Shown piece after piece: positions 16,701 to 40,417 of a stretch of 64,000 bases of DNA. The stretch covers positions 1 to 64,000 of IMG/VR virus record IMGVR_UViG_3300037117_000082; one strand, written 5' to 3'. Position 1 is the stretch's first letter, and each line of letters starts with the position of its first letter. Source of the DNA: a virus. Taxonomy: Duplodnaviria; Caudoviricetes. The notes under the pieces were generated by a model. That model was not told the origin of the DNA, did not search any database, and worked only from the letters and a program-made list of their open reading frames with translations. The position numbers were made by a program, and so were the translations under genes.

Positions 16701-18414
16701 TCGCCGCCGAATGCGACGGTGTCGGGTCACGGTCCGGCTGAGCCGGGGGGACATGCGTGGTGCCCGGCATGTGCCCCTGCGCCAGCGCGGGCCTGCCGCT
16801 GACCTGTCCCTCGTTCGCGCCGGGTGATCCGCCGGCGGAGCCGCCCTGCGCGCCCTGCATCTGCTGCGTCACCGATGGCAGCCCGGCGAGCTGCCCGCCC
16901 GGCTGGCCCGTCGCCGGGTCCACGGAGCCCAGCAGCATGACCCCGTTCGCGGATGCCCACAGCGGGTCCTGGGTGACGGGCAGGCCCCACGGGTCCAGGC
17001 CCAGGACGCCACGGCCCTCGTCCACCGAACGCAGGCCGGTGCCGATCTGCGTTCCCAGCAGGCCCGTCAGGGAGACCTCGTCCTCGTCCTCTTCCAGGCC
17101 CTCGAACAGGAACTGCATGTCCGTCTGCCCGCAGGCAACCTGGATGACCTTGTCCAGCAGTCCCTGCTTGAGGAACTGGAGCATCGGGACGAGGGACTTG
17201 CGCTGGTGGCGCGCGGCATCGGCCTTGCTGGCCTGGTTCATCGCGCTAGGACTTTGAACCGTAGCAACCTGGGGCATCAGGCCCAGTTCGGTAGGCTGGA
17301 CCTGAAATGCCATGCAGACCTCAGTTGACACGATCATGTCGAACTGGTCCGCCAGCTCGGGCGGCTTCTGCGGCATCACCTTGGAGCCAGGGGGGAGCAC
17401 GACGATCTGGTGCTTCATCCCCACGTCGCCGGCGATGACGTTCAATGCCGTTTCCAGATCGCGGATCTGGGATGCCGTCATGGCCGCGTCGCCGGGGGAG
17501 ACGAACAGGCCGGGGATGCTTCCCGAGCGGTAGTAGTCGAGCTGGTAGCCCTGCTTGGAGAGCCCGGACATTACCGGGACAAGGGCCTGCTCAATGGGCG
17601 GGCTGCCGTAGGGCCGGTTCGCCGCGCGGGTGTACGGCAGGTAGAGGAGCTGGTCGCCGCGGTAGTCCTGCACCTTGGTTTTCCGCAGGTCATCCGACAG
17701 GTCCGCGTCGCACATGATCGAAATGTTGTCCGTGCGCGGAATGCCGTAAATGTACTGTTCGTAGGCTGGCGAGGGGGGTGTCGGGCGCGATCCGTGCAAA
17801 TCGACCAAAGGCCGGAAACTGGACCCGTCGATGATCTCTAGCGCCGACAGGTCAGACCCCATGAGGCCGCGCCCGCGCACCCTTGACGGACGTAGGTACA
17901 CGCTTGCGGCGTCAATGGCGTATATGTCCTCCAGGAGGGTATCCAGCCAAGACGACCACGAGCCGTACTCAGGGTCCGGGTTCTTGAAGAACCTGATGCA
18001 CTCGCTGCGGCGCTCCCCGAAGTCCCGCATGGCCTTGTGATCGCCGCGCATCGCCTTCGCCGCGTCCTTCGTGGGAACAATGTCCCACTCCAGGGCGCGG
18101 ATTTCGGACTTGAGTAGCTGGATGCAGGCCCGCGCGACCGAGTAGAGCTGCGCGAGTGACCGCAAGGTGCCGAAATCGGTAAGAGTGACACCTTCGGTAC
18201 GAGGCAGTGATCTGGGTATATTCCACCCGAAAGGGTACTGCCAGCGTCGCGGCATCGGCCGGTCGAAGCCATCCGGCGGCTGGTCGATCGGGATCGGGTC
18301 AAGGGGCGAGAGCGGGCCGAACGAGCCGTCAGTGAAGTCCGCGGCCGGGCGCGGGAGGGCGGACCCGTAGCCGCCTCCCCAGGCGTCGCCCATCGCGGCA
18401 ACGGCGGGAGACAT
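13774..18414 (-). CDS. portal polyprotein: portal + MuF minor head + ParB-like + 2H phosphoesterase + C-terminal domain
   Basis: Portal (VARACIQ, YGSPPIEQ, VCMAFQVQPTELG, VDEGRGVLGLDP); MuF (WHTRNDSRVCARC...QHPGCRC); VIDGHHR; HVT/HCT 2H motifs; LPAYVQNIA...AVERW domain. Confidence 0.88.
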   Translation of the reverse strand: MSPAVAAMGDAWGGGYGSALPRPAADFTDGSFGPLSPLDPIPIDQPPDGFDRPMPRRWQYPFGWNIPRSLPRTEGVTLTDFGTLRSLAQLYSVARACIQLLKSEIRALEWDIVPTKDAAKAMRGDHKAMRDFGERRSECIRFFKNPDPEYGSWSSWLDTLLEDIYAIDAASVYLRPSRVRGRGLMGSDLSALEIIDGSSFRPLVDLHGSRPTPPSPAYEQYIYGIPRTDNISIMCDADLSDDLRKTKVQDYRGDQLLYLPYTRAANRPYGSPPIEQALVPVMSGLSKQGYQLDYYRSGSIPGLFVSPGDAAMTASQIRDLETALNVIAGDVGMKHQIVVLPPGSKVMPQKPPELADQFDMIVSTEVCMAFQVQPTELGLMPQVATVQSPSAMNQASKADAARHQRKSLVPMLQFLKQGLLDKVIQVACGQTDMQFLFEGLEEDEDEVSLTGLLGTQIGTGLRSVDEGRGVLGLDPWGLPVTQDPLWASANGVMLLGSVDPATGQPGGQLAGLPSVTQQMQGAQGGSAGGSPGANEGQVSGRPALAQGHMPGTTHVPPAQPDRDPTPSHSAAIAGAAEAAAAVSGSSSKAAASDPDGLHRYEPYVPGDQSACVKCSLPRSYAAHAVTAIGSRMMLKAIAEPAAPRPADHVLAEILTAPDAASLSKEALAALAPCACCGGAGEHETGHECYRCDGYRVPEAEAKGSPWCEEVFRDQALHVQGCPNCGPPPFLGSGSSKAALSELDALGRHVRKGRDPATWQPVHIPGHVMAMITEDVTKGIGIAEVLTEARRALPKSRAASGGQQRQAWLAWEHDLQLAAKYEQQIGAAFSSVMTEAGKLFAAFLAGTLAVTAAVLASMIADLIRQRLALILAPLHAEGRELGRAAAMQAAGASARQRQGIAAAQQADTSQIAQQAAVRQMAGTGLAGFTVALMKLLLGGAVTVGALLALLDAFLNAENRAGLIALTEIEKAIADGAFGVYTELGVSYVRWHTRNDSRVCARCMANQDAGPVPLGSLFPGGVAQPCQHPGCRCWLAPSDPPKQGVAPPAPGTAKAAGAPLLYQGPVHGGPLSYPPTMDGEAGLEPATYGTPAAVHLTKADKPWKHPDTSLPVAEQVYAQLLEDYPASALTWVKDATWTGPQEVPLSAIEYTPDKWQAGHEDAKVDRFKAKIERRQAAGRPVKPAVLIDRPDTKPGTHLIVIDGHHRALAFRELDRPVVAYVGKVTAAGAKLAEETHSSQFSDQKPGAGDDGRSTKNFTAANLGDGSVHGLAPYDLRGQDAPKEARGYSLSKRSGMISLDLPEGLIEPLPGGITDHHVTVVYLGPDVDDDAFSLACVMARRVAAATQPLSGTIGGIGSFPAGDDGVPVWAGVNLPGAESLHEALAELQSPDAKAREHGYKPHCTIAYLEEGDPLPDPLPHMPVTFTHLSVHRGEDVKHFPFGDVGKSAATPYLSTVHHPLGHEGLWHTPSKKVPERQQLPAYVQNIAAAIERDHGVPESEAIAMAVAAVERWRHGNLEWGPHRHVTPEVAAASERTHEEWEHLRATHDG
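15143..15258 (+). ncRNA. circularly permuted tRNA-like RNA (YrlA/Y-RNA-like topology), antisense within portal gene
   Basis: 16-bp closing stem 15143-58/15243-58; T arm GCGGG-TTCGAGT-CCCGC; acceptor CTCGCCA/TGGCGGG closed by a loop; D arm TA-GCTC-AAT..TTGGTA-GAGC. Confidence 0.7.
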
Positions 18415-23535: not shown

Positions 23536-25170
23536 TCAGGCAGCGATTTCCCCGCAGTCCGGGCACTTGCCGAGCCGCGCCATGTACGCCTTGCCGCAGT
23601 CACACCGAGTTACCCCGTAAGCGTCCAGCCATGTCGTACCATCCGATACGAGGGCAAATACCACAGCGTCGCCGTCGTCGGTGGACCGGCCGATCCGCTT
23701 GCGGATCTCCTTCTTGGACTCGACCTTGATCCGCGCGCCGGACTCCACCTTGGACTTGGGGGCGCACAGGTCACCGATCAGGAGATCATCATCGGGCAGG
23801 CACAGGTCCGGGTCGTTACGGGGGTCAAGCGCCTCGCGCAGCTTCCACCAGGCATAACTCCGGAAATCCGAGAAACGGTACTCGCCCGAGACATCCCTGC
23901 GCTGGCCTGCGCTCTTGGCTGCGGTGAACGGCTCGGCTTTCGCTTTCTGCTCGCGGAGCCGGTCGTACACGCCCTTGCCGATGCCGTCCGAGTCCACCAC
24001 GGCGGTGCACTCCGGATCGGCATCGAGGATGCCCTTGATCCGCCCCGTCGTCTGCATGGTGTCCTGCTTGCCGAACTTCCGCAGTTCCGTGACCACGGGA
24101 CCCCTGCGGATCGCCAGCACCGTCATGTCCGATCCCTCGCCGGCGATGTCCGCGCCGAGGGAATGCGGGCCGGGCAGATCAGGCTTGCCGGCGTCCTCCC
24201 AGGCGTGCCAGCGCTGGACCGCTGCCTCAACCCACGCCAGCGGGATCACGGCATCGTCGTCGGCCGCGTGGAACTCGCCGAGGACGTGGCACTGGACGAA
24301 CTGGGATGTCAGGCCGTACTGCTTGATGCGCTGGTCAGCCCACTTGCGGCTGATCTGCCCTGCCGCTACCGCCTCGTCCAGGGTGACGTGGCGGGCGGTC
24401 CAGTCCTCCAGGCCCTCACGGCGGGAGTGGATGTCGTAGAACCGGCCCTGCGGGTCACCCGGCGTCGACAAAGCGAGCGCGAGGGCCTCGCCGCCGCCGG
24501 ACAGGGCGCCCTCGATCGCATCCCATGTCGTCGCCGGGATGAGCTTCGCCTCATCGAACATGATCAGGATCGCGCTCGCGTGCGCGCCCTCGATCTTCGC
24601 CGAGTCAGTCGGCGCGGCGGCCAGCGCGAGGCCGTGGGGCAGGCGGAGGGCCTGGCGCATCAGCTCATCGGATTTCGGCGGCCTGCCATCACGGACGATG
24701 TCCCAGCGGATCAGGCCGGCCCACTTGTGGACCTCGGGCCAGAAGTAGTTCTTCAGCTGCTGCCACGCCCCGGCGGTGGTGACGATCTTCCAGTCGATGC
24801 CGGCGGCCTCGCGGGTCAGGGCGAACCAGAGGACCGTTATGGACCCGATGCAGCTTTTGCCCAAGCCCCTCGGGCCCCGGACGGCAACGCGCTGCTTCTC
24901 GTCCAGCAGGGTCAGGATCTCGGCCTGGTAGTCCGCCAGGCCCTTGGCGCCTTCCCCGGCTCCCTCGTCCTTGGAGCGGGGAACGGCGCCCCAGTCGATG
25001 CAATTTTCCGCGAACCCCGCTGGATCATGGAGGTACTTGACAACCGACTCGCGGGAGGTTTCCTGACGCCGCGCCAGTGCCTTCGCGTTGAGGGCCAGGA
25101 GGCGGCGGATCTCCGCGTCGATGTCCAGGGGCTCGGGCGGCTCAGCCGGCCGGGTCCTCGCCATCGCCAT
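23536..25170 (-). CDS. terL: terminase large subunit
   Basis: Walker A GPRGLGKS, Walker B LIMFDE, coupling motif LSTP, nuclease GADIAGEGSD, STDDGDA. Confidence 0.92.
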   Translation of the reverse strand: MAMARTRPAEPPEPLDIDAEIRRLLALNAKALARRQETSRESVVKYLHDPAGFAENCIDWGAVPRSKDEGAGEGAKGLADYQAEILTLLDEKQRVAVRGPRGLGKSCIGSITVLWFALTREAAGIDWKIVTTAGAWQQLKNYFWPEVHKWAGLIRWDIVRDGRPPKSDELMRQALRLPHGLALAAAPTDSAKIEGAHASAILIMFDEAKLIPATTWDAIEGALSGGGEALALALSTPGDPQGRFYDIHSRREGLEDWTARHVTLDEAVAAGQISRKWADQRIKQYGLTSQFVQCHVLGEFHAADDDAVIPLAWVEAAVQRWHAWEDAGKPDLPGPHSLGADIAGEGSDMTVLAIRRGPVVTELRKFGKQDTMQTTGRIKGILDADPECTAVVDSDGIGKGVYDRLREQKAKAEPFTAAKSAGQRRDVSGEYRFSDFRSYAWWKLREALDPRNDPDLCLPDDDLLIGDLCAPKSKVESGARIKVESKKEIRKRIGRSTDDGDAVVFALVSDGTTWLDAYGVTRCDCGKAYMARLGKCPDCGEIAA

Positions 25171-26372: not shown

Positions 26373-26393
26373 CCCCGATGGGGCGGCAGTTCA

Positions 26394-26450
26394 GGAGCGG
26401 GGTCGCTACCCGCCACGGTCTTGCGGGTTCGAATCCCGTCCGCTCCGCTA
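26394..26450 (+). ncRNA. truncated tRNA-like element (acceptor + T arm, no canonical D or anticodon arm)
   Basis: GGAGCGG...GCGGG-TTCGAAT-CCCGT-CCGCTCC-G-CTA with only 22 nt between acceptor and T arm. Confidence 0.55.
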
Positions 26451-26834
26451 GCCGGCGTGAGTCCCGCAGGCTCCGCAGTAGCCCTTGATCACTCGCGCCT
26501 TCGGGTGGGGGCACGACTCGTCCCGCCGCGCTGGCGACTGCTCAGCCGCACGTCGCGTCTCTGCCCGCACCAGCGCCTTGCGTGAGGGCGCCGGAACTGG
26601 GGGCAGCGGAGGCACATCACCAGCCGGCCGGAGCCTGCCAGTCCTCACGGGCGACGCGCGCTTGCCGGTCACCGGAACGGCGCCGGCGGTTACCAGCGCC
26701 TCGCGGAGAGCCGCCTCCAGGAACGCCGACCGGGACACGTCCCCGCGAACCTCGTCAAGCTGAGCCGCCAGCGACTCGCTCACCTTGGCACCCACCGTGA
26801 CCCTGCGGCCCTCATCCAGGCGCTTCCGCCCCAT
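26448..26834 (-). CDS. CopG/RHH DNA-binding protein
   Basis: MGRKRL...VTVGAKVSESLAAQLDEVRGDVSRSAFLEAALRE. Confidence 0.7.
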   Translation of the reverse strand: MGRKRLDEGRRVTVGAKVSESLAAQLDEVRGDVSRSAFLEAALREALVTAGAVPVTGKRASPVRTGRLRPAGDVPPLPPVPAPSRKALVRAETRRAAEQSPARRDESCPHPKARVIKGYCGACGTHAG

Positions 26835-26836
26835 GG

Positions 26837-26886
26837 ATAGAAGTTTACCGGAATCAGGGGCACGGGCGCATAGAGGTTTACCGGAA
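26837..26886. repeat. 17-bp direct repeat ATAGARGTTTACCGGAA (candidate operator)
   Basis: Copies at 26837-53 and 26870-86; partial third copy at 28535-48. Confidence 0.7.
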
Positions 26887-27256
26887 CGGGCCTGGACGCA
26901 CGAGGCGAACCGCCGCAAGAAATTCCGGGAGTTCCGGAGTCCCGGCGCGCAGGGAAAAAACGGCGCGCTGAAAATCTAGATGTACCCTTGGGTGCCCAAG
27001 ACCGACTAAAGGGACAAGACGGGGGTCTTCGGTACATACCTGACATACAGGTATGCGTGACCACCCTGACCATGTTCCCGCCCGGGGCGGCCTGCCTCAG
27101 AGCTCTCTCATTGGTGCGCCGGCCCAGGTCCGCGCCACGCTCTCAGGCACCGCGCATAGTGCACCACTTTACGCGGCATGGTGGTGGGCGCAGGGTCGTG
27201 ACCTGCGGCTACGTGGCAGGCTACCAAGATCACTACGGAAACTTTACGCGGCAGGG

Positions 27257-27285
27257 TTGACACCGGGCTAGGGTGCTGCCATCAT
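27257..27285 (+). promoter_or_regulatory. sigma70-type promoter for the rightward array
   Basis: TTGACA-17 nt-CATCAT followed by an AT-rich segment. Confidence 0.5.
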
Positions 27286-27371
27286 TACGGTATCGGTTTA
27301 GATATATTCTAGAACGGCATTCGGTTCCCCGGGCATCCCGGGTGGCTGCCGATCAAAGCCAGGAGGTTTCA

Positions 27372-27818
27372 GTGCAGATGATGACACCCGGCGACGCTAA
27401 CGCTCTCGGCTGGTCATATGACGAGGCCATGGCGGCACGGGATGCGGTGCAGGACGAGCGGACCGCTGCGCTTGACGCACTGGCAGCGGAGAACGGGGTC
27501 GAGCGAGGGGACGGGCCGGCGCTGTGCGAGTGCTCTGGCCGTGACGAGTTCACGCGGCCGGAGTCGGGTTACTGCCCGAGCTGCGAGGGATGGGTTCCCG
27601 AAGGCGCCGGCCTGAGCACGGCCCGTGAGCCGGACGGCGGAGTGCGAGCGTGCGAGCGGAACCTGTACGGGTTCTGCCGTACCTGCGGCACCGACATGAG
27701 GGAGTGCGTCGCCTGCGGGATCACCGGCGGCGAGCTGGTCCGCGGCCTGACCGGCGTGCTGTGCGCCGATGCGGCCACGTGCGAGGACCGGTTCCTCTCG
27801 GCGGCAGGTGCGCTGTGA
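27372..27818 (+). CDS. hypothetical Cys-rich protein
   Basis: GTG 27372 with AGGAGG; several CxxC. Confidence 0.65.
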   Translation: MQMMTPGDANALGWSYDEAMAARDAVQDERTAALDALAAENGVERGDGPALCECSGRDEFTRPESGYCPSCEGWVPEGAGLSTAREPDGGVRACERNLYGFCRTCGTDMRECVACGITGGELVRGLTGVLCADAATCEDRFLSAAGAL

Positions 27819-28044
27819 GGTACCTGCTCGGGTTCGCCGTCGCCCACGTGGACCTGTTCCGCCCGTGCGGACGGCACCTGTGCGAGGTGGTGAGGCTGCG
27901 GGACGGGGTTACCTCGGTCATGCGGGCAGTGATGCTGCGGCATATGGCGAGCTAGGGAAGATCCGCCCGGCTGGCAGGCCGTCACGTTCGAGCCGTGACA
28001 CGGGCACTCGGGAAGATCAATCACTAGCCAGGGGAGCAACGATC

Positions 28045-28215
28045 ATGAAGACCAAGGACCCGCGCGTGCAGGTGACCAGCTTCGGCCGCGAGAACTGGCG
28101 GACCGTGGTCAAGGACGATTGCGGCGACTGGGCAATCACGGGCCCGCCGTACCCGACTAAGACCGAAGCGCTGGTGAACGTTGACCAGGTGGTCCGGGAC
28201 TACTTCGGCGAGTAG
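28045..28215 (+). CDS. hypothetical protein (MKTKDPRVQV...)
   Basis: ATG after the conserved RBS motif. Confidence 0.7.
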   Translation: MKTKDPRVQVTSFGRENWRTVVKDDCGDWAITGPPYPTKTEALVNVDQVVRDYFGE

Positions 28216-28311
28216 CAGGCAGCCTGCCGTGCCGGAAGTCGCGGCGCACGGTTCACAGCCGGCGGCAGGCACGGAAAGATCAAGAAAAACTCACCCGAGA
28301 GGACAGAGCAA

Positions 28312-28470
28312 ATGGGCGCGCTAGCAGAACCGATGTACGCGGTCACCTGGCCGAACGGAGGCGACTACCACAACGGCGAGCTGTTTACCCGCGAGCAGGC
28401 ACTAGCCATCGCGGAGAGCATGGGCAAGACGGCCGACGGGCGGACAGCGAAGATCCGCAAGGTCGTATAG
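28312..28470 (+). CDS. hypothetical 52-aa protein (MGALAEPMYAVTWP...)
   Basis: GAGAGGA RBS; manual translation; not in the ORF track. Confidence 0.65.
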   Translation: MGALAEPMYAVTWPNGGDYHNGELFTREQALAIAESMGKTADGRTAKIRKVV

Positions 28471-28547
28471 CGCTCAGCCTGCCGTTGCGCTCGCAGATCG
28501 GGCGGCAGGCACTCGATGCAGGAACCTAGCCAGGGAGGTTTACCGGA

Positions 28548-28871
28548 ATGTACGACGTAGAGATGACCGATCCGCGGGTGTCGCATGCCGTGCACGCGGA
28601 GAACGGCGCGAGCCGTGACCAGGAGGACCGGATCATGGCGGTTGCGGCCAGGGCCGATCGCGCGGCGCGCGTCCTGCTCACGCAGGCGGAGGTTATCCAG
28701 CTCAGCGGGCGCATGATCAACGCCACGGCGGACTGCTCGCGGATCGCCGCCGGACTCAGCGGCAGGCGGAGCGAGCAGCCGCTGTATGCAGTGATCGCAG
28801 ACGAACTGCGGGCGATCCGCGATGCGCTCACGCTCTGCCCGGTCAGCGGGCCCGTGCCTATCCCGTTCTGA
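28548..28871 (+). CDS. hypothetical protein
   Basis: ATG after the conserved motif. Confidence 0.65.
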   Translation: MYDVEMTDPRVSHAVHAENGASRDQEDRIMAVAARADRAARVLLTQAEVIQLSGRMINATADCSRIAAGLSGRRSEQPLYAVIADELRAIRDALTLCPVSGPVPIPF

Positions 28872-28997
28872 CGCGCTGTAGGGCGCACGCCTCACGGGAC
28901 GTCCAGGCTGAGAACAGCTTGTGTCGCGTCGTGATCCGCAAGGCGTGCGCCCGGCAGCCTGCCAGAGCAGGAAGACTCCAGCCAGGGAGAGTCACCA

Positions 28998-29282
28998 GTG
29001 AGCTACACCGTCATAGGGATCAAGCCTCACGGCTTCCACCGTGCCAGTGCCGCGGGAACGTTCCGCAAGATCGTGCGCGTCGTCAGGACCGGCCTGCGTG
29101 CCGCGCGGATCCTGGCCACCGAGCCGGCGTTGCCGAAGCTGCTTCGCGTGCTGCTGGTGGTCGGCATGATCCAGACCCCGCTGCCTCTCGATGAGGCTTG
29201 CCTGGCCATCGCACTGCCGTGGCTGCTCATCGGGCACCGCGCCACGCTGCGGGCGGCGATCGTGAAGGCGCGGCTGGCATGA
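28998..29282 (+). CDS. hypothetical membrane protein
   Basis: GTG after the conserved motif; P.P.DE hydrophobic hairpin. Confidence 0.65.
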   Translation: MSYTVIGIKPHGFHRASAAGTFRKIVRVVRTGLRAARILATEPALPKLLRVLLVVGMIQTPLPLDEACLAIALPWLLIGHRATLRAAIVKARLA

Positions 29283-29546
29283 GCCTCATTGCGCGGCTCA
29301 TGTTCGAGCTTGACTGCCGTTTCGCCGAGTGGCTCTGCACGCGCTTTGAGGCGATGGCGCGGCACCGCTAGCGGTGAACCGGAGGACAGCCCAACGGCCA
29401 GGGAGGGCTGTCCTCCGGCATGTCAGGGAGCTTACCGGCTGGCAGGAAAAGGCCGGCGTGTTGCCGCGTAAAGCTAGACAGGACCATGCCCCATGCATTA
29501 AGGTATAGCTATACCGTAATTCACTCTTAGCCAGGGGAGAGACCAA

Positions 29547-29960
29547 GTGAGCATCAGGACCGGCACAGAACTAGACCAGCGTGATCAGGAAATCCTCGCG
29601 TGGCGCACTACCGAGCTTGACCTGATCACCGGGCCGCGCGAAGGCGATTACGTGGAGTTCGCCAACGGGATCACGCGGCGCGTCTCCCATGTGTGGGGCA
29701 CCGAGTGGGACACCGAGGACGGCTGCATGTCCGGCGTCCAGACCACCGAAGGCGGATCGTTCTACCTCGGCAACGGGCACGTCAGCTACTCCGGGTCGCT
29801 GTACCAGATGGTGCCGATGGCCAGCCTGACGGACACGTGGACGGCTCGCGCCGGCTCAGTGTGGATCTTCCACCACGACCACCACACCGCGCACAACGGC
29901 ATCGCCGCCGAAATCCCGTTCCGTGTCTACAAGTGCTCGCAGGACGCACCGCGTTCCTAG
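29547..29960 (+). CDS. DUF4121-like protein
   Basis: PREGDYV...GSFYLG.G.VSYSG...WIFHH...AHNG...RVY pattern. Confidence 0.6.
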   Translation: MSIRTGTELDQRDQEILAWRTTELDLITGPREGDYVEFANGITRRVSHVWGTEWDTEDGCMSGVQTTEGGSFYLGNGHVSYSGSLYQMVPMASLTDTWTARAGSVWIFHHDHHTAHNGIAAEIPFRVYKCSQDAPRS

Positions 29961-30041
29961 GTGCTCATGGCCGGGCTGGTCACGTACCAGCCCGTGCCAT
30001 GTCCGCTAGGGCAGCCCGAACTAGCCAGGGGAGAAAAGATC

Positions 30042-30560
30042 ATGACCTACAGAGACCGGCGCGAGGCCCGCGCAGAACGACTGCGCGGATGGGCCGGGAC
30101 ACGCGAAGCACGCGCCGAGGCCGTATTCAAGGCCGGTGAACCGTTCACATCTGACTACGCGTTCAACACCCAGCCGGGGCACATCCCGTTCCGGGCGAAG
30201 CTGATCGCCCGCGAGGACCGGGCGCACGAGTCGGTCACCAAGGCCGCGTCGATGCGATCCCGCGCGGACGGCATCGAAGGCCAGCTGGCGAACGCGATCT
30301 ACGAGGATGACCCGGACGCGATCGAGCAGTTGCGGGCCAGGATCGCCCGGCTGGAGACTGAGCGCGACGCGGCCAAGGCAGTCAACGCCGCCTACCGCAA
30401 AGAGCACAAGGCCGAACTGGCGGCGATGGAACCCTACGAGCGCAGGCAGGCGGTGCCGTACCCCGGCTATCACTTCGAGAACCTGTCGGGGAACCTGAGC
30501 CGGCAACGCGCCCGGCTGGCCCGGCTGGCCCGGCTGGAGAGGGCGGCTGCCAGCGCCTAG
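30042..30560 (+). CDS. DUF3560-like protein
   Basis: Y.DRREARAERL...QPGH...IYEDDPDAIEQLRARI...NL..NL.R.R.RL. Confidence 0.75.
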   Translation: MTYRDRREARAERLRGWAGTREARAEAVFKAGEPFTSDYAFNTQPGHIPFRAKLIAREDRAHESVTKAASMRSRADGIEGQLANAIYEDDPDAIEQLRARIARLETERDAAKAVNAAYRKEHKAELAAMEPYERRQAVPYPGYHFENLSGNLSRQRARLARLARLERAAASA

Positions 30561-30657
30561 CACGTCAAGCCCTCGGACCGGCTAAGGACCGGGCACCTGC
30601 GAGCGAGACGCAGGAGGGCACGCAGTAGGCGAAGCACCCTAGCCAGAGGAGACAGTA

Positions 30658-30870
30658 ATGGATAACGAGAGACTGCACCGCGCCGGGCAGGCTTACCGCG
30701 AGGCAGTCGCCGCAGCGGATGCGCAGTACGAGGCGGACGGCGACCGGGGCGCCTGCAACGCCGCCAAGGTTGCCGCATCAGAGGCGCTCAGCGCCGAGAA
30801 GAACGCGGTATACGCGCCGGTCGACGCGATGCTCGACCGCATAGACGACGACGACAGCCCCGTCAGCTGA
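30658..30870 (+). CDS. hypothetical protein
   Basis: ATG after the conserved motif. Confidence 0.6.
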   Translation: MDNERLHRAGQAYREAVAAADAQYEADGDRGACNAAKVAASEALSAEKNAVYAPVDAMLDRIDDDDSPVS

Positions 30871-30948
30871 TGGCCCCGAGGCTGCGCGTCTCGCACGCGC
30901 AGCCGATCGGGCACTCAGCCCAAAGTCCCTGCCAGGGAGGACTACGCA

Positions 30949-32679
30949 ATGACCATCACCCTTGACCGGCCCGACGTCCGGTCGCTGTCCGATGCCGAGC
31001 TAACTGAGCTTGCATGGGTAACCGCCACCTACTGCGGAGGCGGGGAACTGTCGCAGGACGCGACCGCGGAGCAGCGGCGGCGTGAGGCAGCGAAGCGCCG
31101 TTACGCGGCCCGCAGCACGGGACTCGCGGGCGAGTGGATGGACGCGGCGCACGCTCAGATGCTTGCTGCCGAGTCCGTTTGCTGCGGCAACCTCGTGCGC
31201 AAGGGATCGGAAGTCACCGACGGCTGGTCGCTCTGGTCCGGCACCGAAGCATGGGCCAGGGCGAACGCTACCGAGGAGCTGCGGGAGTTCTGGGATCAGT
31301 CCCCGCGCATCACCGTAACGCAGTACAAGGCGCAGGAAAGGCGCCAGAGGGAGGTTTACGAAGATGACCGACTGGACCGAGATGCAGCCGGCGGAGTTCG
31401 ACAGGAGCGCAGCGGGGAAGAGGGAGCGCGCGATCATCGAGAGCGCGCCGGCCACCCTGTTCCCGCGGCTCCTGCCGGCGCCGTCACGCAAGGCCACGCC
31501 GGCGGCAGTACAGCTGCCCGGCCAGGATTCCCTGTTCGGGGAGGACGCATGACCACTGACACCGCGTGCCTGCACACGGACGACTCGTGCACGCACAAGA
31601 GTCCTACCGGGCGGGCGATAAGGGCAGCGGCGATGGGCGCCACGGAGCCCGTGGCGATGGCATACCGGGCGCCGGCTCAGGTAGCGGTAAGGGAGCCGTC
31701 AGCGGTCATCGTGCCGCAGCGCAGCGCAGCTAGGCGCACGATTGACGGGGCGATGGTGCTGGACTACACCCGGCTCTACCTGTCGCGCTACGTGGCGTTC
31801 CCGAGTGCCGCAGCGCTGGACCTTACTACCGCGTGGATCGTGCACGCATCGGCCCGTGACCGTGACGACACCGGCATCGGCCCGCTGATCTGGCGGGCGA
31901 GCCCGCGGCTGCTGGTCACGTCGGCGACGCGCGGCAGCGGCAAGTCAACCGTGCTGGACCTGATCACGATCCTGACCAGGTCGCGCAACGGGCGCATGCC
32001 CAAGGTCACGCCCAGGGCGATTGCCTGCGTGCTGGGACGCCGCCACGAGACCGCGATCCTTGACGAGGCGAAGCTGATCCTCGGTGCCGGGAACCGGTCC
32101 CAGGAACTCCAGGGCATCCTGCTGGCGGGCTATACCCCGCGGTCCAACTACGTCGCCAGCAAGGGCGGCAAGGATGACCCGATCCCGCTTTTCGGCCCCG
32201 TCGCCTACGCCGGCAAGGATGAGCTGATCACCGACACCGGCGGCATGCTCGGCGACCTGCTGGACCGCTCCGTGATCGTGCGCATGCGCACCTCGCCCCG
32301 GCACATGCCGGAGGTAGACGAGGACGCCGAGGATGACGGCGACCTGCTCGCCGGCGCTCTCGCGGCCTGGACGAGCGAGGCCAAGGGCGATCTGCGGGAA
32401 GCCGCCAGGGCGCTCGGCGCGGCCGACAGGGAGACTGGCGCGGTCACTGACGGCGCGGCGCTGCGGGCAGCTCAGATATGCCGTCCCCTGCGCGCTGTCG
32501 GCATGGTCGCCGGCGGAGGCTGGGCAGAGCGCATTGACGAGGCATGCCGCCGCAGCGAGGACGAGGACATGATGGACGTGCTCAGCGCGCGTTTCGGTTC
32601 CGCTGGCGCGGCATCAGACGGCGATGACGAGTGGGGCACCGGCAGCGTGGTAAGCGGAGAAGGTGACTGGGATGCCTGA
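30949..32679 (+). CDS. ORF whose C-terminal part (internal start 31549) is a DUF3631-like replication NTPase
   Basis: YLSRYVAFPS...AW.VH...PRLLVTS.TRGSGKS Walker A, ILDE Walker B, DRS; internal GGAGG-ATG at 31549. Confidence 0.75.
   Translation: MTITLDRPDVRSLSDAELTELAWVTATYCGGGELSQDATAEQRRREAAKRRYAARSTGLAGEWMDAAHAQMLAAESVCCGNLVRKGSEVTDGWSLWSGTEAWARANATEELREFWDQSPRITVTQYKAQERRQREVYEDDRLDRDAAGGVRQERSGEEGARDHRERAGHPVPAAPAGAVTQGHAGGSTAARPGFPVRGGRMTTDTACLHTDDSCTHKSPTGRAIRAAAMGATEPVAMAYRAPAQVAVREPSAVIVPQRSAARRTIDGAMVLDYTRLYLSRYVAFPSAAALDLTTAWIVHASARDRDDTGIGPLIWRASPRLLVTSATRGSGKSTVLDLITILTRSRNGRMPKVTPRAIACVLGRRHETAILDEAKLILGAGNRSQELQGILLAGYTPRSNYVASKGGKDDPIPLFGPVAYAGKDELITDTGGMLGDLLDRSVIVRMRTSPRHMPEVDEDAEDDGDLLAGALAAWTSEAKGDLREAARALGAADRETGAVTDGAALRAAQICRPLRAVGMVAGGGWAERIDEACRRSEDEDMMDVLSARFGSAGAASDGDDEWGTGSVVSGEGDWDA
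31364..31552 (+). CDS. nested small hypothetical protein
   Basis: GGAGG upstream; its stop overlaps ATG 31549 (ATGA); ends LPGQDSLF. Confidence 0.55.
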   Translation: MTDWTEMQPAEFDRSAAGKRERAIIESAPATLFPRLLPAPSRKATPAAVQLPGQDSLFGEDA

Positions 32680-32830
32680 TCAGGTAACCCGCGACAAGCT
32701 CGCGGCACTCAATCCCGGCATGGACGAGCGCGGGCTAGCGCGCCTTGCCGCGTTCGAGCAGCTCATCGCCGAGGATGACGAGGCCAGTGGCTACGAGGAC
32801 CCCGCGGACGAATGCGAGGGTGCACCGTGA
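32672..32830 (+). CDS. small acidic hypothetical protein
   Basis: MPDQVTRDKL...; stop overlaps the recombinase GTG. Confidence 0.5.
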   Translation: MPDQVTRDKLAALNPGMDERGLARLAAFEQLIAEDDEASGYEDPADECEGAP

Positions 32831-33753
32831 CCCGCGCGCTGCGTGCCGTCCCCAGCACCACGATGCCCCTGTGGGATGCCGTGGCCAGCTACCTGGCCAC
32901 CATGGACCACCCGGAGAGCGCCGGAACGCGGAAGCAGTACGGGTCGATCCTGAACCGCATGGCCAGGGGCATCGGCGAGGAAAGGGACGTGCAGGCCGTC
33001 ACCGCCGCCGACCTTACGGCGTGGATGAAGGCCACGTCCGGGGATCGCGCCCCCCGGACGTGGAACCTGGCGAGAGTATGCCTGCGCTCCGCATGGTCGT
33101 ACTGGGGGCAGGCAGGCTGGGCTGACCCGGAGGTTGCACGGGGCATCCCGCCGCGGAAGGTCGCGGAGGACCGTGACCGGGCAATACCGGGAGACGTGCT
33201 GGAGGCACTGCTGGCGGACCAGAAGATCCCGCTGCGGGAGCGCGTGCTCTGGCGGATGATGCTGGAGACCGCGGCGAGGGAGTCGGAGCTGCTGCGGCTT
33301 GACGTCGGCGACCTGGACCTGCCGCACCACCGTGCGCGGGTAACACGCAAGGGAGGCGACACAACCGGCCTGTGCTGGCAGTCGGGCACCGCATCGGCGC
33401 TTCCCCGGCTGCTGAAAGGGCGCAGGAGCGGCCCGCTGTTCGTCACGTCCCGGAAGGCGCCGGCGGGAACGCCGCGCGCCGACGTGGCACCTGACGGCCG
33501 GGGAAGGCTGTCAGCAAGGCAGGCGCAGGACACGTTCATGAAGGCAACCCGGGACTTCCCCGGAGGCCCCTGGACGCTGCACCAGATCCGCCACCGCGCA
33601 CTCACCGACGCGGCCGAGGCAGGCGCGTCGACCGCGATGATGATGGCGCTGAGCGGCCACAAGAACGTCAAGAGCCTGCTGATCTACGCCAGGGTAGGGA
33701 CGGACGCGCTGGCAGCCTGGCAGGCCGATCGTGACCCGAACCGGAGGCACTGA
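32827..33753 (+). CDS. tyrosine recombinase (Xer-like, no arm-binding domain)
   Basis: Catalytic set: ARESELL (R), RKGG (K), HQIRH, SGH, IYA (Y). Confidence 0.92.
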   Translation: MTRALRAVPSTTMPLWDAVASYLATMDHPESAGTRKQYGSILNRMARGIGEERDVQAVTAADLTAWMKATSGDRAPRTWNLARVCLRSAWSYWGQAGWADPEVARGIPPRKVAEDRDRAIPGDVLEALLADQKIPLRERVLWRMMLETAARESELLRLDVGDLDLPHHRARVTRKGGDTTGLCWQSGTASALPRLLKGRRSGPLFVTSRKAPAGTPRADVAPDGRGRLSARQAQDTFMKATRDFPGGPWTLHQIRHRALTDAAEAGASTAMMMALSGHKNVKSLLIYARVGTDALAAWQADRDPNRRH

Positions 33754-37210: not shown

Positions 37211-38326
37211 CTAGCCCACCACGGCAAAGCTAGGGCGCTCGGCATGCCACATCGCCAGCAGCCGGTCAGCCTTCGGCTCGCCAACGGGAAGCTCCTTGGC
37301 GACCCTGTAGCGGGTCATGGCCGCGCCGCTTTCAGCTAGCTCCCGGATGGCCTCCAGCAGCAGGTCATCGGTAGCGCGGCGTCCGGCCCTCTGTGCCCTC
37401 TTAACGGCACTGAGGGATGGCCTCCGGGGGGTAGCCCCGGCAGGCTCCGGGAGGGGTGCGGCGATGGCCTCCGGGGGTGCTTCGGCGACCACGGCGGGAG
37501 GGGTCACGGGAGCCACTTCGCGGCGGTCGTTGGACAGCACCTCGGCGATAGTCTCGGGCAGCCCCAGGCGGGACGCCAGCCACGTCTCCAGGGCAGGCTC
37601 CCAGACTGTCGCGCCGCCATAGCCCAGGGACCGCTTGATGGCGTCCGCGACGTCCGCCGGGAACCGCCCGGAGCGCATGGCCCGGCGGACGGTCAGCGGC
37701 ACCGGCAGGTCCGGGCGCCGCACCCTCGCGGCGGTCACCACATCGGCGCAGTGCAGCCGGGCGTCCTCGGTGACGAGCATCAGCGGCCACGACGCGATGC
37801 CCAGCAGGTGCTTGCGGCGCCACAGCAGGAGCGTCGGCCAGGGTGCCGCGAGCCACCGGCCGGCCGGGACGCGGTCCGGGCGGGCGGCAGGATCCCGGCG
37901 CAGTGCCCGCCAGGTGAACCGCAGGGCCTCCACGCCGAGCACCCACAGCGCCGGCATGGCCGCGTGGATGACGCGCCACACGTTCCCGTCAGCCGGGGAG
38001 ACCGCGGCGTTGGCCCACACCGTGAACGCGGCCAGCGCCCATGCCACCGCGTGCAGCCAGCGGGACCGCTCGCCGAGGGTGACGGCCAGGTGGTCGAGCA
38101 CCACGTAGGCGAGAATCCCGGAATCGACGCCCAGGGGCAGCAGCGCCGGGAACACCCATCCGTGCGCGCTGGCGGCGCCGTACAGCGTCGTGAAGGATGA
38201 CAGGAAGCCCATGGCCATGCCGGCGGTTACCACGGCGACGGCGAAGCGCAGGGCATTGCGCTGGCCGCGTGTCAGTCGTGCGTTCATCTCGCCATCCTGT
38301 GTCTGGCTGGTGATCAATCGCTGCAT
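37211..38326 (-). CDS. DUF2637/SpdA-like membrane protein with C-terminal HTH
   Basis: SF..L...A...G...LLPLGVD; four TMs; RWLAAPWPTLLLWRR. Confidence 0.8.
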   Translation of the reverse strand: MQRLITSQTQDGEMNARLTRGQRNALRFAVAVVTAGMAMGFLSSFTTLYGAASAHGWVFPALLPLGVDSGILAYVVLDHLAVTLGERSRWLHAVAWALAAFTVWANAAVSPADGNVWRVIHAAMPALWVLGVEALRFTWRALRRDPAARPDRVPAGRWLAAPWPTLLLWRRKHLLGIASWPLMLVTEDARLHCADVVTAARVRRPDLPVPLTVRRAMRSGRFPADVADAIKRSLGYGGATVWEPALETWLASRLGLPETIAEVLSNDRREVAPVTPPAVVAEAPPEAIAAPLPEPAGATPRRPSLSAVKRAQRAGRRATDDLLLEAIRELAESGAAMTRYRVAKELPVGEPKADRLLAMWHAERPSFAVVG

Positions 38327-38350: not shown

Positions 38351-40417
38351 TCATCCTCCGGTGGCAGTGTGATCGCTAGGGGCACTTCCGGCCAGGACGG
38401 TGAGGCTGGGACGGGTGAGGACATAGAAGCCCGTCCGCGGCCTGCCGATCTGGCCGGCCTCGGTGAGCGCCCGCAGCGAATCGGAGATGACGCGCAGCCC
38501 GAACGGCTTAGGGCGCCCCCATTCCCCGGTCGCGAGAATGCCGGCGCGCTCGCAGATGACGCCGCGGTCCAGCTCGCCGGCTGCCTCGTGCAGGACGGCG
38601 AGGATGGCGTCTGACGAGGTGCGGCCCTCGGGTCCGTCAGTGTCCGGGACGGCAGCGAGAGGAGCGGGCAGCGTGGCGGCGGCCGGGCGCGGCGCGGCGA
38701 TCCTCTGCTGGTCGAGGCAGCGGCGGAACGCATCGCCGAACACGGCATCCATCTCGCGGGGGGTGGCGTCCACGGCGACCTTGCGCGGGTTGGGCACGAG
38801 CCGCACGCGCATCGGGGAGTCGGGGCGGTTGTCCGGGCCGACGATGTAGCCGAGCCCGTGAGTCTCCGAGCCGTCCGGGAAGGTGCGCGGCAGCAGCTTC
38901 GGGTCAGCCTCCAGCCCGATGATGCCGCCCGACAGCGCCTCCCCGGTGCGGAGCGCGACCGCGTTGCCGCCGACGACCATTGCCCGCAGCGTCATGTCGC
39001 CGAGCTGGGACAGCAGCAGCGTGTGGGAGACGATCATCAGGTGGCCGCCGGCCTTGCGGTTGAGCTTCACGAGGTTGCCGACGATCCGCTGCGCCTCGGT
39101 GCCGTGTTTCGGGTCGCCGAGCACGAGGTGCGCCTCATCGAAGACGGCGAAGATCAGCGGCAGCCCGGACAGGACCGGGTCGTAGAAGTCCATGCCGGGC
39201 CGCTCGTAGCCGTCCTCATCGGTCCACGTGAGGTCGGCCAGGTACTCCGACCGGGCCATCATCCCGGCCTCGAACGCGCGCAGGTAGGCCATGCACTCCG
39301 GGACGCCGCGGGCGTAGGTGACCTGGCCGCGCCAGTCCGGCAGCGACTGCCCTTGCTGCGGGTCCAGCACGATCGGGATGACGGGAATCTCGGACGTGAC
39401 CGCGGCGGACAGCAGGAGATGCAGGAGGTAGCTCTTCCCCGAGCCTTTTACGCCCACCACGACGGACTGCTCAGCGCCGTTGCGGGGTGACCAGAACCGG
39501 AAGTGCGCGGGGTCGCCGTCCGGGAAGTCGCCGAGCACGGCTAGCCCGGTTGCGGGGTCGATGCCCTCGCCGTCCCAGCGGCGGACCCTGGCGAGGGTGT
39601 TGGTGCGCAGCAGCGTCAGCGTCACCTCATGCTCGCGGCCATCGGGCAGCCGCTCCGGGTAGACCTCGGTGACCGGCCGGCCGAACAGGGACGCGATCTT
39701 CTTGGTCATGCCGAACACGTCGGAGGTGTCCTGGTCGCCGCGGACGAGCCGCAGCGTGTACTTCGTGCCGTTGCGGATCTCCAGCGGCAGCGACAGCCTC
39801 GAGCCCGCGAGCCGGCCCTTGGTGCCGAGCGTGGCGGCCCAGAGCGCCGTATCGCTCAGCGGTGCGGGCTCAGGCTCGCGCTCGGGCAGCACCGGCCGCC
39901 AGCGGTACTGCCGTACCCAGAGGATCACGACGGGCAGCCAGCAGCAGAGCAGCAGCGGCGGGAGCGGGCCCTTGTGCAGCCCGAGAGCGGCGATGAGCGG
40001 CAGCAACAGGAGCGTCAGGCAGGCGAGCACGGCAGCGGTGCCGCGGGCGAAGGCAGTCAGGTGACGGCACAGCAGGACCATGCAGGCGGCGGCGAGGAAG
40101 GCAGTCAGGAAGGCGGCAGGCAGCGCATGGTGCAGCGCGAGTCCTGCGCCGGTGACGCCGCCGAGCCACCAGAACGGAACGAGGTGCAGGCGGTAGCGGT
40201 AGGCCCCGGTCCGGGCGGCGAGCTTCGAGCCCGGCAGCCGTGACGGCACTACCTGCCCGGCGAGTGCAGTGCCGGGTGCAGCCGCCAGTGCAGCGGCCTG
40301 CGCCCGGCCCATCTCGCGGGCAAACTTCTTCGCCTGCCTGCCGTCCATGCGGATGACCGGCCCCGCTGGCGGGTGCTTGCGCCGCCAGCGGGGGATCTCC
40401 CTCGTCGCCTGCTTCAT
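38351..40417 (-). CDS. TraB-like FtsK/SpoIIIE conjugative DNA translocase
   Basis: N-terminal TMs; Walker A GVKGSGKS; Walker B AVFDE; RKAGG; C-terminal wHTH. Confidence 0.85.
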   Translation of the reverse strand: MKQATREIPRWRRKHPPAGPVIRMDGRQAKKFAREMGRAQAAALAAAPGTALAGQVVPSRLPGSKLAARTGAYRYRLHLVPFWWLGGVTGAGLALHHALPAAFLTAFLAAACMVLLCRHLTAFARGTAAVLACLTLLLLPLIAALGLHKGPLPPLLLCCWLPVVILWVRQYRWRPVLPEREPEPAPLSDTALWAATLGTKGRLAGSRLSLPLEIRNGTKYTLRLVRGDQDTSDVFGMTKKIASLFGRPVTEVYPERLPDGREHEVTLTLLRTNTLARVRRWDGEGIDPATGLAVLGDFPDGDPAHFRFWSPRNGAEQSVVVGVKGSGKSYLLHLLLSAAVTSEIPVIPIVLDPQQGQSLPDWRGQVTYARGVPECMAYLRAFEAGMMARSEYLADLTWTDEDGYERPGMDFYDPVLSGLPLIFAVFDEAHLVLGDPKHGTEAQRIVGNLVKLNRKAGGHLMIVSHTLLLSQLGDMTLRAMVVGGNAVALRTGEALSGGIIGLEADPKLLPRTFPDGSETHGLGYIVGPDNRPDSPMRVRLVPNPRKVAVDATPREMDAVFGDAFRRCLDQQRIAAPRPAAATLPAPLAAVPDTDGPEGRTSSDAILAVLHEAAGELDRGVICERAGILATGEWGRPKPFGLRVISDSLRALTEAGQIGRPRTGFYVLTRPSLTVLAGSAPSDHTATGG

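Follow-up and report, generated by a model that had tools for sequence, protein, structure and literature searches.

We analyzed a 64,000-nucleotide stretch of tailed-phage DNA (the window), which is the first 64 kb of IMG/VR record IMGVR_UViG_3300037117_000082 (G000), a genome of 115,040 bp with direct terminal repeats and 68.6% G+C. Our subject is an array of 11 plus-strand genes at 27372–32679 (g1–g11) and, above all, the spacers between them. Two of the ten gene junctions are 4-nt overlaps (g1/g2 and g6/g7), and the other eight are spacers of 77–175 nt (819 nt in total). All eight follow one order: a stop codon, a stem-loop beginning 2–9 nt on, a linker and the next start codon, with a 12-nt motif or a variant of it 6–9 nt ahead of the start in seven. 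The order of stop, hairpin, gap and ribosome-binding site (RBS) that a first-pass annotation had read from the sequence as applying to nearly every spacer therefore holds in each of them. The pattern stops at g11 and is confined to this operon, a sister phage conserves its parts around different genes and, in two sisters, hammerhead ribozymes sit in the slot that the stem-loops occupy here. The proteins encoded downstream of the motif copies belong to no common family.

The eight stem-loops (H1–H8; Table 1) are of mixed shape. Five of them (H1, H2, H3, H7 and H8) share the feature that had first drawn attention to the locus, a closing GCC.../...GGC stem followed by AC; the closing pair is G–C and the next base is A. 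H1, H2 and H7 are three-way junctions, and the arms quoted for them in the first-pass annotation are all present. H1 combines a basal stem (P1) of GCCC(G)/(C)GGGC with a 4-bp arm and the T-arm-like arm GTCACG-TTCGAGC-CGTGAC (27981–27999). In H2, P1 is GCCTGCCG/CGGCAGGC and is joined by a 5–6 bp arm and by CGG-TTCACAG-CCG (28249–28261). P1 of H7 (GCCCTC/GAGGGC) carries a CCGG/CCGG arm and, flush with P1, the arm CTGCG-AGCGAGA-CGCAG (30597–30613). Beyond GCC/GGC and one duplicated 8-mer, the arms of different elements have no sequence in common, and their loops or inserts run from 5 to ~50 nt. The five GCC/GGCAC elements were too heterogeneous for an in-register MAFFT alignment, and explicit structure descriptors with shuffles were used in place of a covariance model.

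Folding favors the sense strand (−231.3 kcal/mol summed over the elements versus −218.8 for the antisense), and the predicted stems of H1–H4 contain seven G–U pairs. When stability was scored as z against 200 dinucleotide shuffles, H3, H4, H5, H6 and H8 proved more stable than their shuffles. The plus strand of 27358–30948 yielded no terminator-like site, defined as a stem with a U tract, and a T run follows none of the eight stems.

Table 1. Features of the array and of the flanking parts of the window (z, stability against dinucleotide shuffles; aa, amino acids)
Feature	Position	Strand	Description
TerL	23536–25167	−	Weak Terminase_6N match
Operator-like 12-mer, copy 1	27167–27178	+	CTTTACGCGGCA
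Operator-like 12-mer, copy 2	27242–27253	+	Abuts the −35 hexamer
Sigma-70-like promoter	27257–27285	+	TTGACA, 17 nt, CATCAT, TG extension; predicted to drive the array
Start motif variant	27358–27367	+	GCCAGGAGG; before g1
g1	27372–27818	+	148 aa, Cys-rich; zinc-ribbon-like (weak)
g2	27815–27955	+	46 aa; orthologue is G001 gene C (65% aa)
H1	27965–28007	+	Three-way junction; after g2; z +0.17
Start motif	28025–28036	+	TAGCCAGGGGAG; 8 nt ahead of the g3 ATG
g3	28045–28215	+	56 aa; no family found
H2	28222–28272	+	Three-way junction; then AC; z −1.85
RBS of a different type	28294–28303	+	CCCGAGAGGA; before g4; sole spacer without the 12-mer
g4	28312–28470	+	52 aa; no family found
H3	28477–28512	+	Hairpin; closing stem as H2 (GCCTGCCG/CGGCAGGC), then AC; z −2.67
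Start motif	28527–28538	+	TAGCCAGGGAGG; before g5; inside the 33-nt leader 28518–28550
g5	28548–28871	+	107 aa; no family found
H4	28880–28957	+	Long hairpin, 28 pairs; z −4.36
Start motif variant	28979–28990	+	CAGCCAGGGAGA; before g6; conserved in G001
g6	28998–29282	+	94 aa; first 35 aa common to the truncated G001 gene H
g7	29279–29371	+	30 aa; 4-nt overlap with g6; L033 match 52%
H5	29379–29420	+	Perfect 14-bp hairpin, no U tract; z −6.18
Operator-like 12-mer, copy 3	29462–29473	− (inverted)	Within the AT-richer 29460–29525
Start motif	29528–29539	+	TAGCCAGGGGAG; before g8; L059 has the same leader and start
g8	29547–29960	+	137 aa; no family found
H6	29966–30001	+	15-pair hairpin; closes GGCC.../...GCC, then AT; z −6.78
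Start motif	30022–30033	+	TAGCCAGGGGAG; before g9
g9	30042–30560	+	172 aa; DUF3560 protein (30042–30557, Pfam E 8.7e-8)
H7	30569–30621	+	Three-way junction; then AC; z −1.74
Start motif	30640–30651	+	TAGCCAGAGGAG; before g10
g10	30658–30870	+	70 aa; part of cassette ~30622–30914
H8	30873–30914	+	10-bp hairpin in a 4-bp closing stem GCCC/GGGC, then AC; z −3.79
Start motif variant	30930–30941	+	TGCCAGGGAGGA; before g11
g11	30949–32679	+	576 aa; no family found; orthologues in G001 (45%) and L033 (30%)
Tyrosine integrase	32812–33750	+	Pfam E 1.2e-17

The start motif is specific to the array. The 115-kb genome has four sites that match TAGCCAGGGGAG with at most one mismatch, each of them a plus-strand site within the array that lies 6–8 nt ahead of a start codon; the same motif read backwards, used as a whole-genome control, has none. 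Looser variants precede four further starts, including that of g1, so that all copies lie within 27358–30941. We considered the 12-mer as a −10 promoter element and rejected it, by eye because it ends in A rather than T, and also because a transcript beginning after the 12-mer would lose its Shine–Dalgarno sequence. The stop codons are skewed as well: six of the eight genes with a spacer after them (g2, g3, g4, g7, g8 and g9; 27953–30560) end in TAG, compared with 40 of 170 genes elsewhere in a rough, approximate gene set (Fisher p = 0.004). The spacer modules may carry their own stop codon along. A second recurring RBS context, CC(C/T)GAGAGGA(A/C)A, precedes g4 and two genes near 69.7–70.4 kb (sites at ~69660–69682 and ~70357–70381); a strong hairpin at ~70310–70355 lies ahead of the latter site.

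Two regulatory regions frame the first part of the array. The sigma-70-like promoter ahead of g1 is the sole promoter-like site found in 26500–33000. The 12-mer CTTTACGCGGCA (at most one mismatch) occurs at exactly three places in the 115-kb genome, all at these two regions, and it is probably a repressor operator. H5 probably ends the first transcription unit, because an AT-richer region and the inverted third copy of CTTTACGCGGCA come next, and we infer a second promoter within 29460–29525.

Three relatives of the array were available for comparison, two of them (G001 and L033) found through TerL. The sister G001 (IMGVR_UViG_3300014501_000001; loci L013, L027 and L028) is a 113,096-bp record with terminal repeats and 88% TerL identity, L033 is a 33-kb metagenome contig with 76% TerL identity, and L059 is a third, more distant relative of the array that has homologues of g1 (73%/43%), g2 and g11, together with two exact copies of the 12-mer, one with a hairpin ahead. 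G001 conserves the promoter (the region is 76% identical), the CTTTACGCGGCA-type 12-mers of the first regulatory region, H1 (87% over 61 nt), H7 (84%) and the start motifs; the second regulatory region is absent from it. Only three of the 11 array genes have a G001 homologue, namely g2 (gene C), the first 35 residues of g6 and g11 (gene I), and of g1 it shares the first codons only. Conservation is thus stronger in the spacers than in the genes between them.

Pairing is kept where the sequence changes. All 15 pairs of H7 are retained between G000 and G001, including one double compensatory change from U–A to C–G, a pattern that rests on two sequences and that 244 of 500 shuffles match; elsewhere in H7 the two phages differ only in loops and at a junction. 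In G001 another sequence forms the small arm of H1 (GGCU/GGCC versus CCUG/CAGG), and a single A-to-G change in its T-arm leaves a G–U pair. A pseudoknot between the loop and tail of H1 (CGAG with CUCG) was considered and dropped, as by eye it is not conserved in G001.

The same slot holds ribozymes in two relatives. G001 has two Hammerhead_II (RF02276) matches (34.4 and 32.3 bits; E = 0.0011 and 0.004; gathering score 37), each with an intact GAAA / GUC / CUGAUGA core, and the record has no other good match. Each occupies an array spacer and begins directly at a TAG stop, which forms the first part of the outer stem of the hammerhead. The first is followed directly by a plain GGGAGG RBS; the second has the start motif 8 nt after it and then the start codon. 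Upstream of the first lies gene C, whose orthologue g2 is followed by H1 in the window. The array of L033 likewise contains two Hammerhead_II matches, of which one exceeds the gathering score of 37 at 39.7 bits and the other reaches 34.4 bits. On its minus strand, L033 has another repeated pre-start motif after its hammerheads, GTAATACAGGGCAGCG, followed by a GAGG-type RBS (~4285–4325 and ~4845–4885 in reverse-complement coordinates). The start motif seems lineage-specific, while the slot is conserved. Because this arrangement matches the clustered prophage hammerheads of Perreault et al. (PMC3088659), we regard the slot of H1–H8 as a self-cleavage site in close kin. The hammerheads found between stop and RBS in the sisters lend strong indirect support to the idea that the polycistron is cut in these spacers.

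The modules also coincide with places at which cassettes have moved. G001 lacks the segment that begins just past the GGGCAC of H7 and extends to that of H8, comprising a linker, a start motif, g10 and the H8 hairpin, so that H7 passes straight to an H8-type tail and the orthologue of g11. The 33-nt leader at 28518–28550 is 100% identical between the two phages and stands ahead of non-homologous genes (g5 here, F in G001) and after different hairpins. H1 follows g2 in G000; in G001 it follows gene A and precedes genes B and C. Outside this lineage, g9 is 85–89% identical at the nucleotide level to genes in the otherwise unrelated contigs L005 and L006, in which genes are tightly packed without such spacers, and the identity ends within ~15–30 nt of the gene ends. 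G001 is also without 29098–30551 (the rest of g6, g7, H5, the second regulatory region, g8, H6 and g9), and the left end of this indel falls inside g6, which speaks against a strict breakpoint rule. Breakpoints do fall at modules for the g10 cassette, the g5/F leader, the right edge of g2 and the relocation of H1. The suggestion that the hairpins are recombination points is partly borne out by the GGGCAC-flanked g10 cassette, the shared leader and the moved H1, although not for every breakpoint. In part, these cases show cassettes being gained, lost and swapped at joints formed by the repeated ends of the modules, GGGCAC and the motif leader.

Some elements resemble tRNA in part. In H1, H2 and H7, and in the G001 orthologues, an arm with a 7-nt loop lies 0–2 nt from the closing strand, which gives a stack of ~10–11 pairs. 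H1 has the exact T-loop signature G-TTCRA-NN-C on a 6-bp stem, and this is conserved in G001. Across the genome (both strands), the signature on a stem of at least 5 bp has four sites versus 0.48 expected: tRNA-Met at 111483–111557, a Y-RNA-like mimic at 15140–15270, a tRNA-like fragment at 26393–26447 and H1. Given that count and the identity of the other sites, the T-arm reading of H1 is well founded. Elsewhere in the array the signature fades: the loop of H2 (UUCACAG) has one departure from it, the loops of H7 and H8 are unrelated and H3 has no such arm. The tails of the GCC/GGCAC elements are ACU or ACG, not RCCA, and the stacks have 10–11 pairs rather than 12. The acceptor-plus-T-arm geometry claimed at the outset is thus real for H1, H2 and H7 and exact in its T-loop for H1, whereas tRNA detectors reject every element and the tail is not that of a tRNA.

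The other signature sites deserve a brief description. The tRNA-Met (CAT) is bona fide according to ARAGORN and lies on the plus strand outside the window. The Y-RNA-like match (YrlA, RF02553; plus strand; 48.2 bits, E = 1.1e-7, gathering score 69) has tRNA-like T and D arms and runs antisense within the open reading frame (ORF) 13774–18414; G001 has a match of the same score (L013, 18901–19031, minus strand). The plus-strand fragment at 26393–26447 consists of a 7-bp stem (GGAGCGG/CCGCTCC) around a perfect T-arm (GCGGG-TTCGAAT-CCCGT), with ~22 nt where the D and anticodon arms belong. It has no ARAGORN call and no counterpart in the G001 locus, and may be either a further tRNA mimic or a tRNA remnant of attP type.

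Our best explanation, to which we give about even credence, is that the spacers are RNA-level punctuation modules of an early operon and also recombination joints. We read them at the level of RNA because the elements fold better in the sense strand, lack U tracts, keep their pairing despite sequence change and are replaced by ribozymes in close kin. Each module comprises the stop codon, a sense-strand fold 2–9 nt on, a short and mostly unpaired linker, a fixed 12-nt motif with a Shine–Dalgarno core and a start codon 6–9 nt later. The elements would mark sites at which the early transcript is cut or at which its decay is arrested, and every small gene would then have its own stability and its own translation, with a protective hairpin at the 3′ end of the upstream RNA and a standardized strong RBS a short distance inside the 5′ end of the downstream one. 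In the sister phages the cut would be made by self-cleavage; in the window phage it would need a host endonuclease. For H1, H2 and H7, RNase P or RNase Z would be the candidate enzymes, and they are the most specific ones on offer because these elements imitate the acceptor/T-arm half of a tRNA in their G–C closing pair, in the A–C that follows and in the stacked arm with its 7-nt loop. The plain hairpins H3–H6 and H8 would act as 3′ stabilizers or pause sites. For RNase III, which had been proposed alongside RNase P and RNase Z, most stems are shorter than the duplexes that it needs.

Several results weigh against this explanation. H1, H2 and H7, the elements to which a processing enzyme would be assigned, fold no better than dinucleotide shuffles, and in high-GC genomes it is common for a GC-rich hairpin to follow a stop codon. 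The closing stem, described as GCC, at least five pairs, GGCAC and a span of 25–70 nt, has 149 sites genome-wide versus 134 ± 13 in 30 dinucleotide shuffles and so is not special in itself; its density in the spacers is unusual (four sites in 819 nt versus ~0.6 expected from the plus-strand rate). A fuller descriptor of the three-way junction (the closing stem, a small arm of at least 4 bp and a second arm with a 5–7 nt loop, 0–2 nt from the closing strand, with a combined stack of at least ten pairs) finds H1, H2, H7 and one intragenic site in the genome, compared with an average of 1.6 sites, and 3 at most, in 40 shuffles, a count that overstates the significance because the descriptor was composed after the elements had been viewed. 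Covariation evidence is thin, as the collections contain just two to three sister records. ARAGORN called no tRNA in the window and none at the elements when the whole genome was run, in standard or mitochondrial (armless) mode, and no tRNA-type Rfam family (tRNA, tmRNA or tRNA-like) matched 27200–31100 at E ≤ 10. Nor does G000 have a hammerhead: the best match is 12.4 bits on the wrong strand, a regular-expression search found no core and no other Rfam ribozyme matched the array at E ≤ 10. Since the G000 array has no ribozyme, its equivalence with the ribozymes of the sisters is argued from position only. No phage-encoded RNase III, CCA-adding enzyme or Ro/TROVE domain was found, and any processing enzyme would accordingly have to be that of the host. 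A weak Hammerhead_II match at 29217–29327 on the minus strand (22.5 bits; 12.4 over 29217–29280 in the genome-wide search) was rejected as noise.

Transcript data bear little on the matter. A peat metatranscriptome run (X1) contained 5% of the sampled words, and on 26800–32800 it covers 29462–29732 alone, as contigs that carry no information on ends, strand or processing. There are two contigs of 151 nt: 29582–29732 is identical to the window and 29462–29603 has 14 differences, which implies that a close variant is also present in that sample; carry-over of DNA is possible. The contigs start at 29462, which coincides, weakly, with the inverted copy of CTTTACGCGGCA.

A more specific form of the punctuation idea is that H1, H2 and H7 (perhaps also H3 and H8) are acceptor/T-arm minihelices, cut by host RNase P 5′ of the closing G, by RNase Z after the A, or by both; we put it forward tentatively, as unlikely. 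A closing G–C pair followed by A and C in all five GCC/GGCAC elements, the stacked arms here and in the G001 orthologues, and the overrepresented T-loop signature that H1 keeps in G001 all speak for it, and RNase P is known to cleave model hairpins made of an acceptor stem, T stem and T loop (PMC11143913). The negative tRNA searches tell against it, as do a T-loop signature in just one of the five loops, an AC tail followed by U or G, stacks short of 12 pairs and the weakness of the three folds; moreover, the closing G is preceded by C, A, A, A or G and never by the U that the review marks at position −1. The three-way-junction elements may go further and represent undescribed tRNA-half mimics with which host RNase P or RNase Z cuts the early mRNA into single-gene units, which we judge unlikely. 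Such mimics would be evolutionarily interchangeable with hammerheads and would give bacterial viruses a counterpart of mitochondrial transcripts, which are punctuated by tRNAs. That the elements form a new class of self-cleaving ribozyme is extremely unlikely, because H1, H2 and H7 have no junction nucleotides in common.

Readings that place the signal elsewhere than in RNA processing account for part of the data. Transcription-level signals, that is, terminators or pause sites without U tracts that produce stepwise attenuation, perhaps with a phage antiterminator and with the 12-mer as nothing but a strong RBS, would suit H3, H4, H5, H6 and H8, which are simple and very stable post-stop hairpins (z −2.7 to −6.8), and the second regulatory region with its CTTTACGCGGCA copy follows H5 as at a real unit boundary; stem-loop terminators are also paired with recombination in the promoter early stem-loop (PeSL) cassettes of T4-type phages (PMC2839356). 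We nevertheless hold this account to be quite unlikely, as the array has no U tract and no terminator-like plus-strand site, the three-way junctions are weak folds and would be poor terminators, and termination leaves unexplained both the AC tail and the hammerheads in the slot of the sisters. It is very unlikely that the 12-mer, the inverted repeats or both are DNA-level binding sites for a repressor of the phage or another protein that binds DNA, of the stoperator kind or as proposed for extended start-associated sequences (ESAS), that silence the early operon in lysogens. In favor of such sites, the phage is probably temperate, the motif is asymmetric, intergenic and of a single orientation, and Pope et al. 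preferred DNA binding for ESAS, in which departures from the repeat do not preserve pairing (PMC3203893). Here, the arms differ between elements and yet pair, the opposite of ESAS, with G–U pairs in the stems and arm spacings of 5 to ~50 nt; the promoter-associated CTTTACGCGGCA is the better operator candidate, and TAGCCAGGGGAG stands exactly at RBS distance. If anything less probable again is the view that these are ordinary GC-rich spacers, stable by chance or for generic 3′ stability, whose similarity stems from recent spacer duplication. The chance-level closing stem, the three folds that do not exceed shuffles, the identical closing stems of H2 and H3, as expected of duplicates, and exact-pattern IMG/VR scans that found only G000 and G001 fit such a view. 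It is at odds with spacers better conserved than genes, a 33-nt leader 100% identical beside unrelated genes, stems kept through sequence change, a motif confined to the array and ribozymes in the slot of the sisters.

The phage is uncultured, and its genomic setting points to an undescribed actinophage-like lineage, as TerL is at most 49% identical to that of named phages (best matches, Streptomyces phage TurkishDelight and Actinoplanes phage phiAsp2) and the array had no nucleotide match among 50,697 GenBank phages (megablast and blastn). A TerL search of one-per-species genomes gave a sole match, at 47%, in a Chloroflexi metagenome-assembled genome, and g11 used as a query in IMG/VR returned no relatives. 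A scan for the 13-mer plus ATG yielded 18 contigs with one exact match apiece; among the loci fetched, only L059 has two 12-mer copies on one strand, and L064 has one per strand. The exact-pattern scans mentioned above covered the promoter/operator, H1, H7 and the g5 leader. Structural genes occupy the minus strand up to ~26.9 kb of the window, among them the giant ORF 13774–18414, which is portal/MuF-like. We consider the phage probably temperate because it encodes a tyrosine integrase. Of the two families named in advance for the cargo of the array, the DUF3560-like gene is g9; DUF4121 had no match in ten array proteins (all but g7) at E ≤ 0.01, or in eight of them rescanned at E ≤ 5.

Two further loci lie apart from the array. 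A DUF2637 protein (37211–38323, minus strand; E = 2.2e-14) neighbors a weak FtsK/SpoIIIE-like ATPase (38351–40414, minus strand; E = 3.5e-4), a pair reminiscent of actinomycete conjugative elements. A partial group I intron match (RF00028) at 5451–5601 on the minus strand (model positions 56–151 of 253; 27.9 bits, E = 0.0043, short of the gathering score of 50) sits between the minus-strand ORFs 4681–5418 and 5641–6336.

Among known systems, the start motif invites comparison with the start-associated sequences (SAS) and ESAS of Cluster K mycobacteriophages and Cluster EF Microbacterium phages (PMC3203893; PMC7302621). The SAS consensus is GGGATAGGAGCCC in Cluster K (PMC3203893) and GGGAAAGGACCCC in Cluster EF (PMC7302621), in 10–19 copies, and ESAS are inverted repeats of 17 bp that are imperfect, allow a consensus to be derived and have a 4–13 bp spacer (PMC3203893). 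As in SAS, we find an asymmetric motif of 12–13 nt with a Shine–Dalgarno core, in one orientation, a few nucleotides before start codons and conserved beyond the needs of an RBS; it occurs only among non-structural genes, ahead of unrelated ones, and, as with ESAS, about half or more of the copies have an inverted repeat with a variable spacer upstream. The motif itself differs (TAGCCAGGGGAG rather than GGGATAGGAGCCC or GGGAAAGGACCCC), as does its number (eight copies versus 10–19), and the upstream stems are not sequence-conserved 17-mers; they vary, keep their pairing and in some cases form three-way junctions. The sisters of the window phage link the slot to hammerheads, of which the available portions of PMC3203893 and PMC7302621 make no mention for SAS or ESAS.

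The second parallel is with the prophage hammerheads of Perreault et al. (2011), which are clustered, flank single genes or short blocks whose content varies, were active in vitro on ~2-kb transcripts and were proposed to process long phage RNA into gene-length mRNAs (PMC3088659). The array resembles them in setting structured RNA between genes or short blocks, and G001 and L033, with two type II hammerheads each, are plain examples. It departs from them in the window phage, where the slot holds tRNA-like junctions or plain hairpins with no hammerhead core and no conserved junction nucleotides. RNase P uses G+1/C+72, the discriminator and C74/C75 (PMC11143913). Its model substrates have the same G–C closing pair, the A and then C, and the stacked arm with a 7-nt loop, and H1 adds an exact T-loop; the elements differ from such substrates and from tRNA in having no cloverleaf, no RCCA and a stack of 10–11 rather than 12 pairs, and in being rejected by tRNA tools.

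The PeSL cassettes of T4-type phages, each an early sigma-70 promoter with a stem-loop terminator (PMC2839356), are likewise short repeated stem-loop modules between small non-essential early ORFans, and the indels and replacements of relatives end at them, as some do in the array. Here, by contrast, 11 genes have two promoter-like regions between them (one of them inferred), and what is conserved is an RBS motif rather than a promoter. Coliphage T7 places RNase III hairpins in every early spacer and leaves its mRNAs with protective 3′ stems. Those sites have one shape, two stems plus a bubble, with ~20 pairs; most of the elements described here are shorter, and their shapes are mixed.

SAS and ESAS have been catalogued in actinophages since 2011, and hammerheads that flank phage genes are known as well. 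In the lineage described here, one slot holds a hammerhead, a tRNA-like junction or a plain hairpin in front of a fixed start motif, and after one orthologous gene (g2/C) there is a hammerhead in G001 and a tRNA-like element in the window phage. This offers a hypothesis for start-associated modules at large, in which transcript punctuation would be coupled to standardized translation starts, and it nominates H1, H2 and H7 as tRNA-like substitutes for ribozymes. It also documents the modules as possible joints for the swapping of ORFan cassettes between phages. The array is, in sum, a variant on both SAS/ESAS and the hammerhead-flanked cassettes, one that joins a start motif to ribozyme slots.

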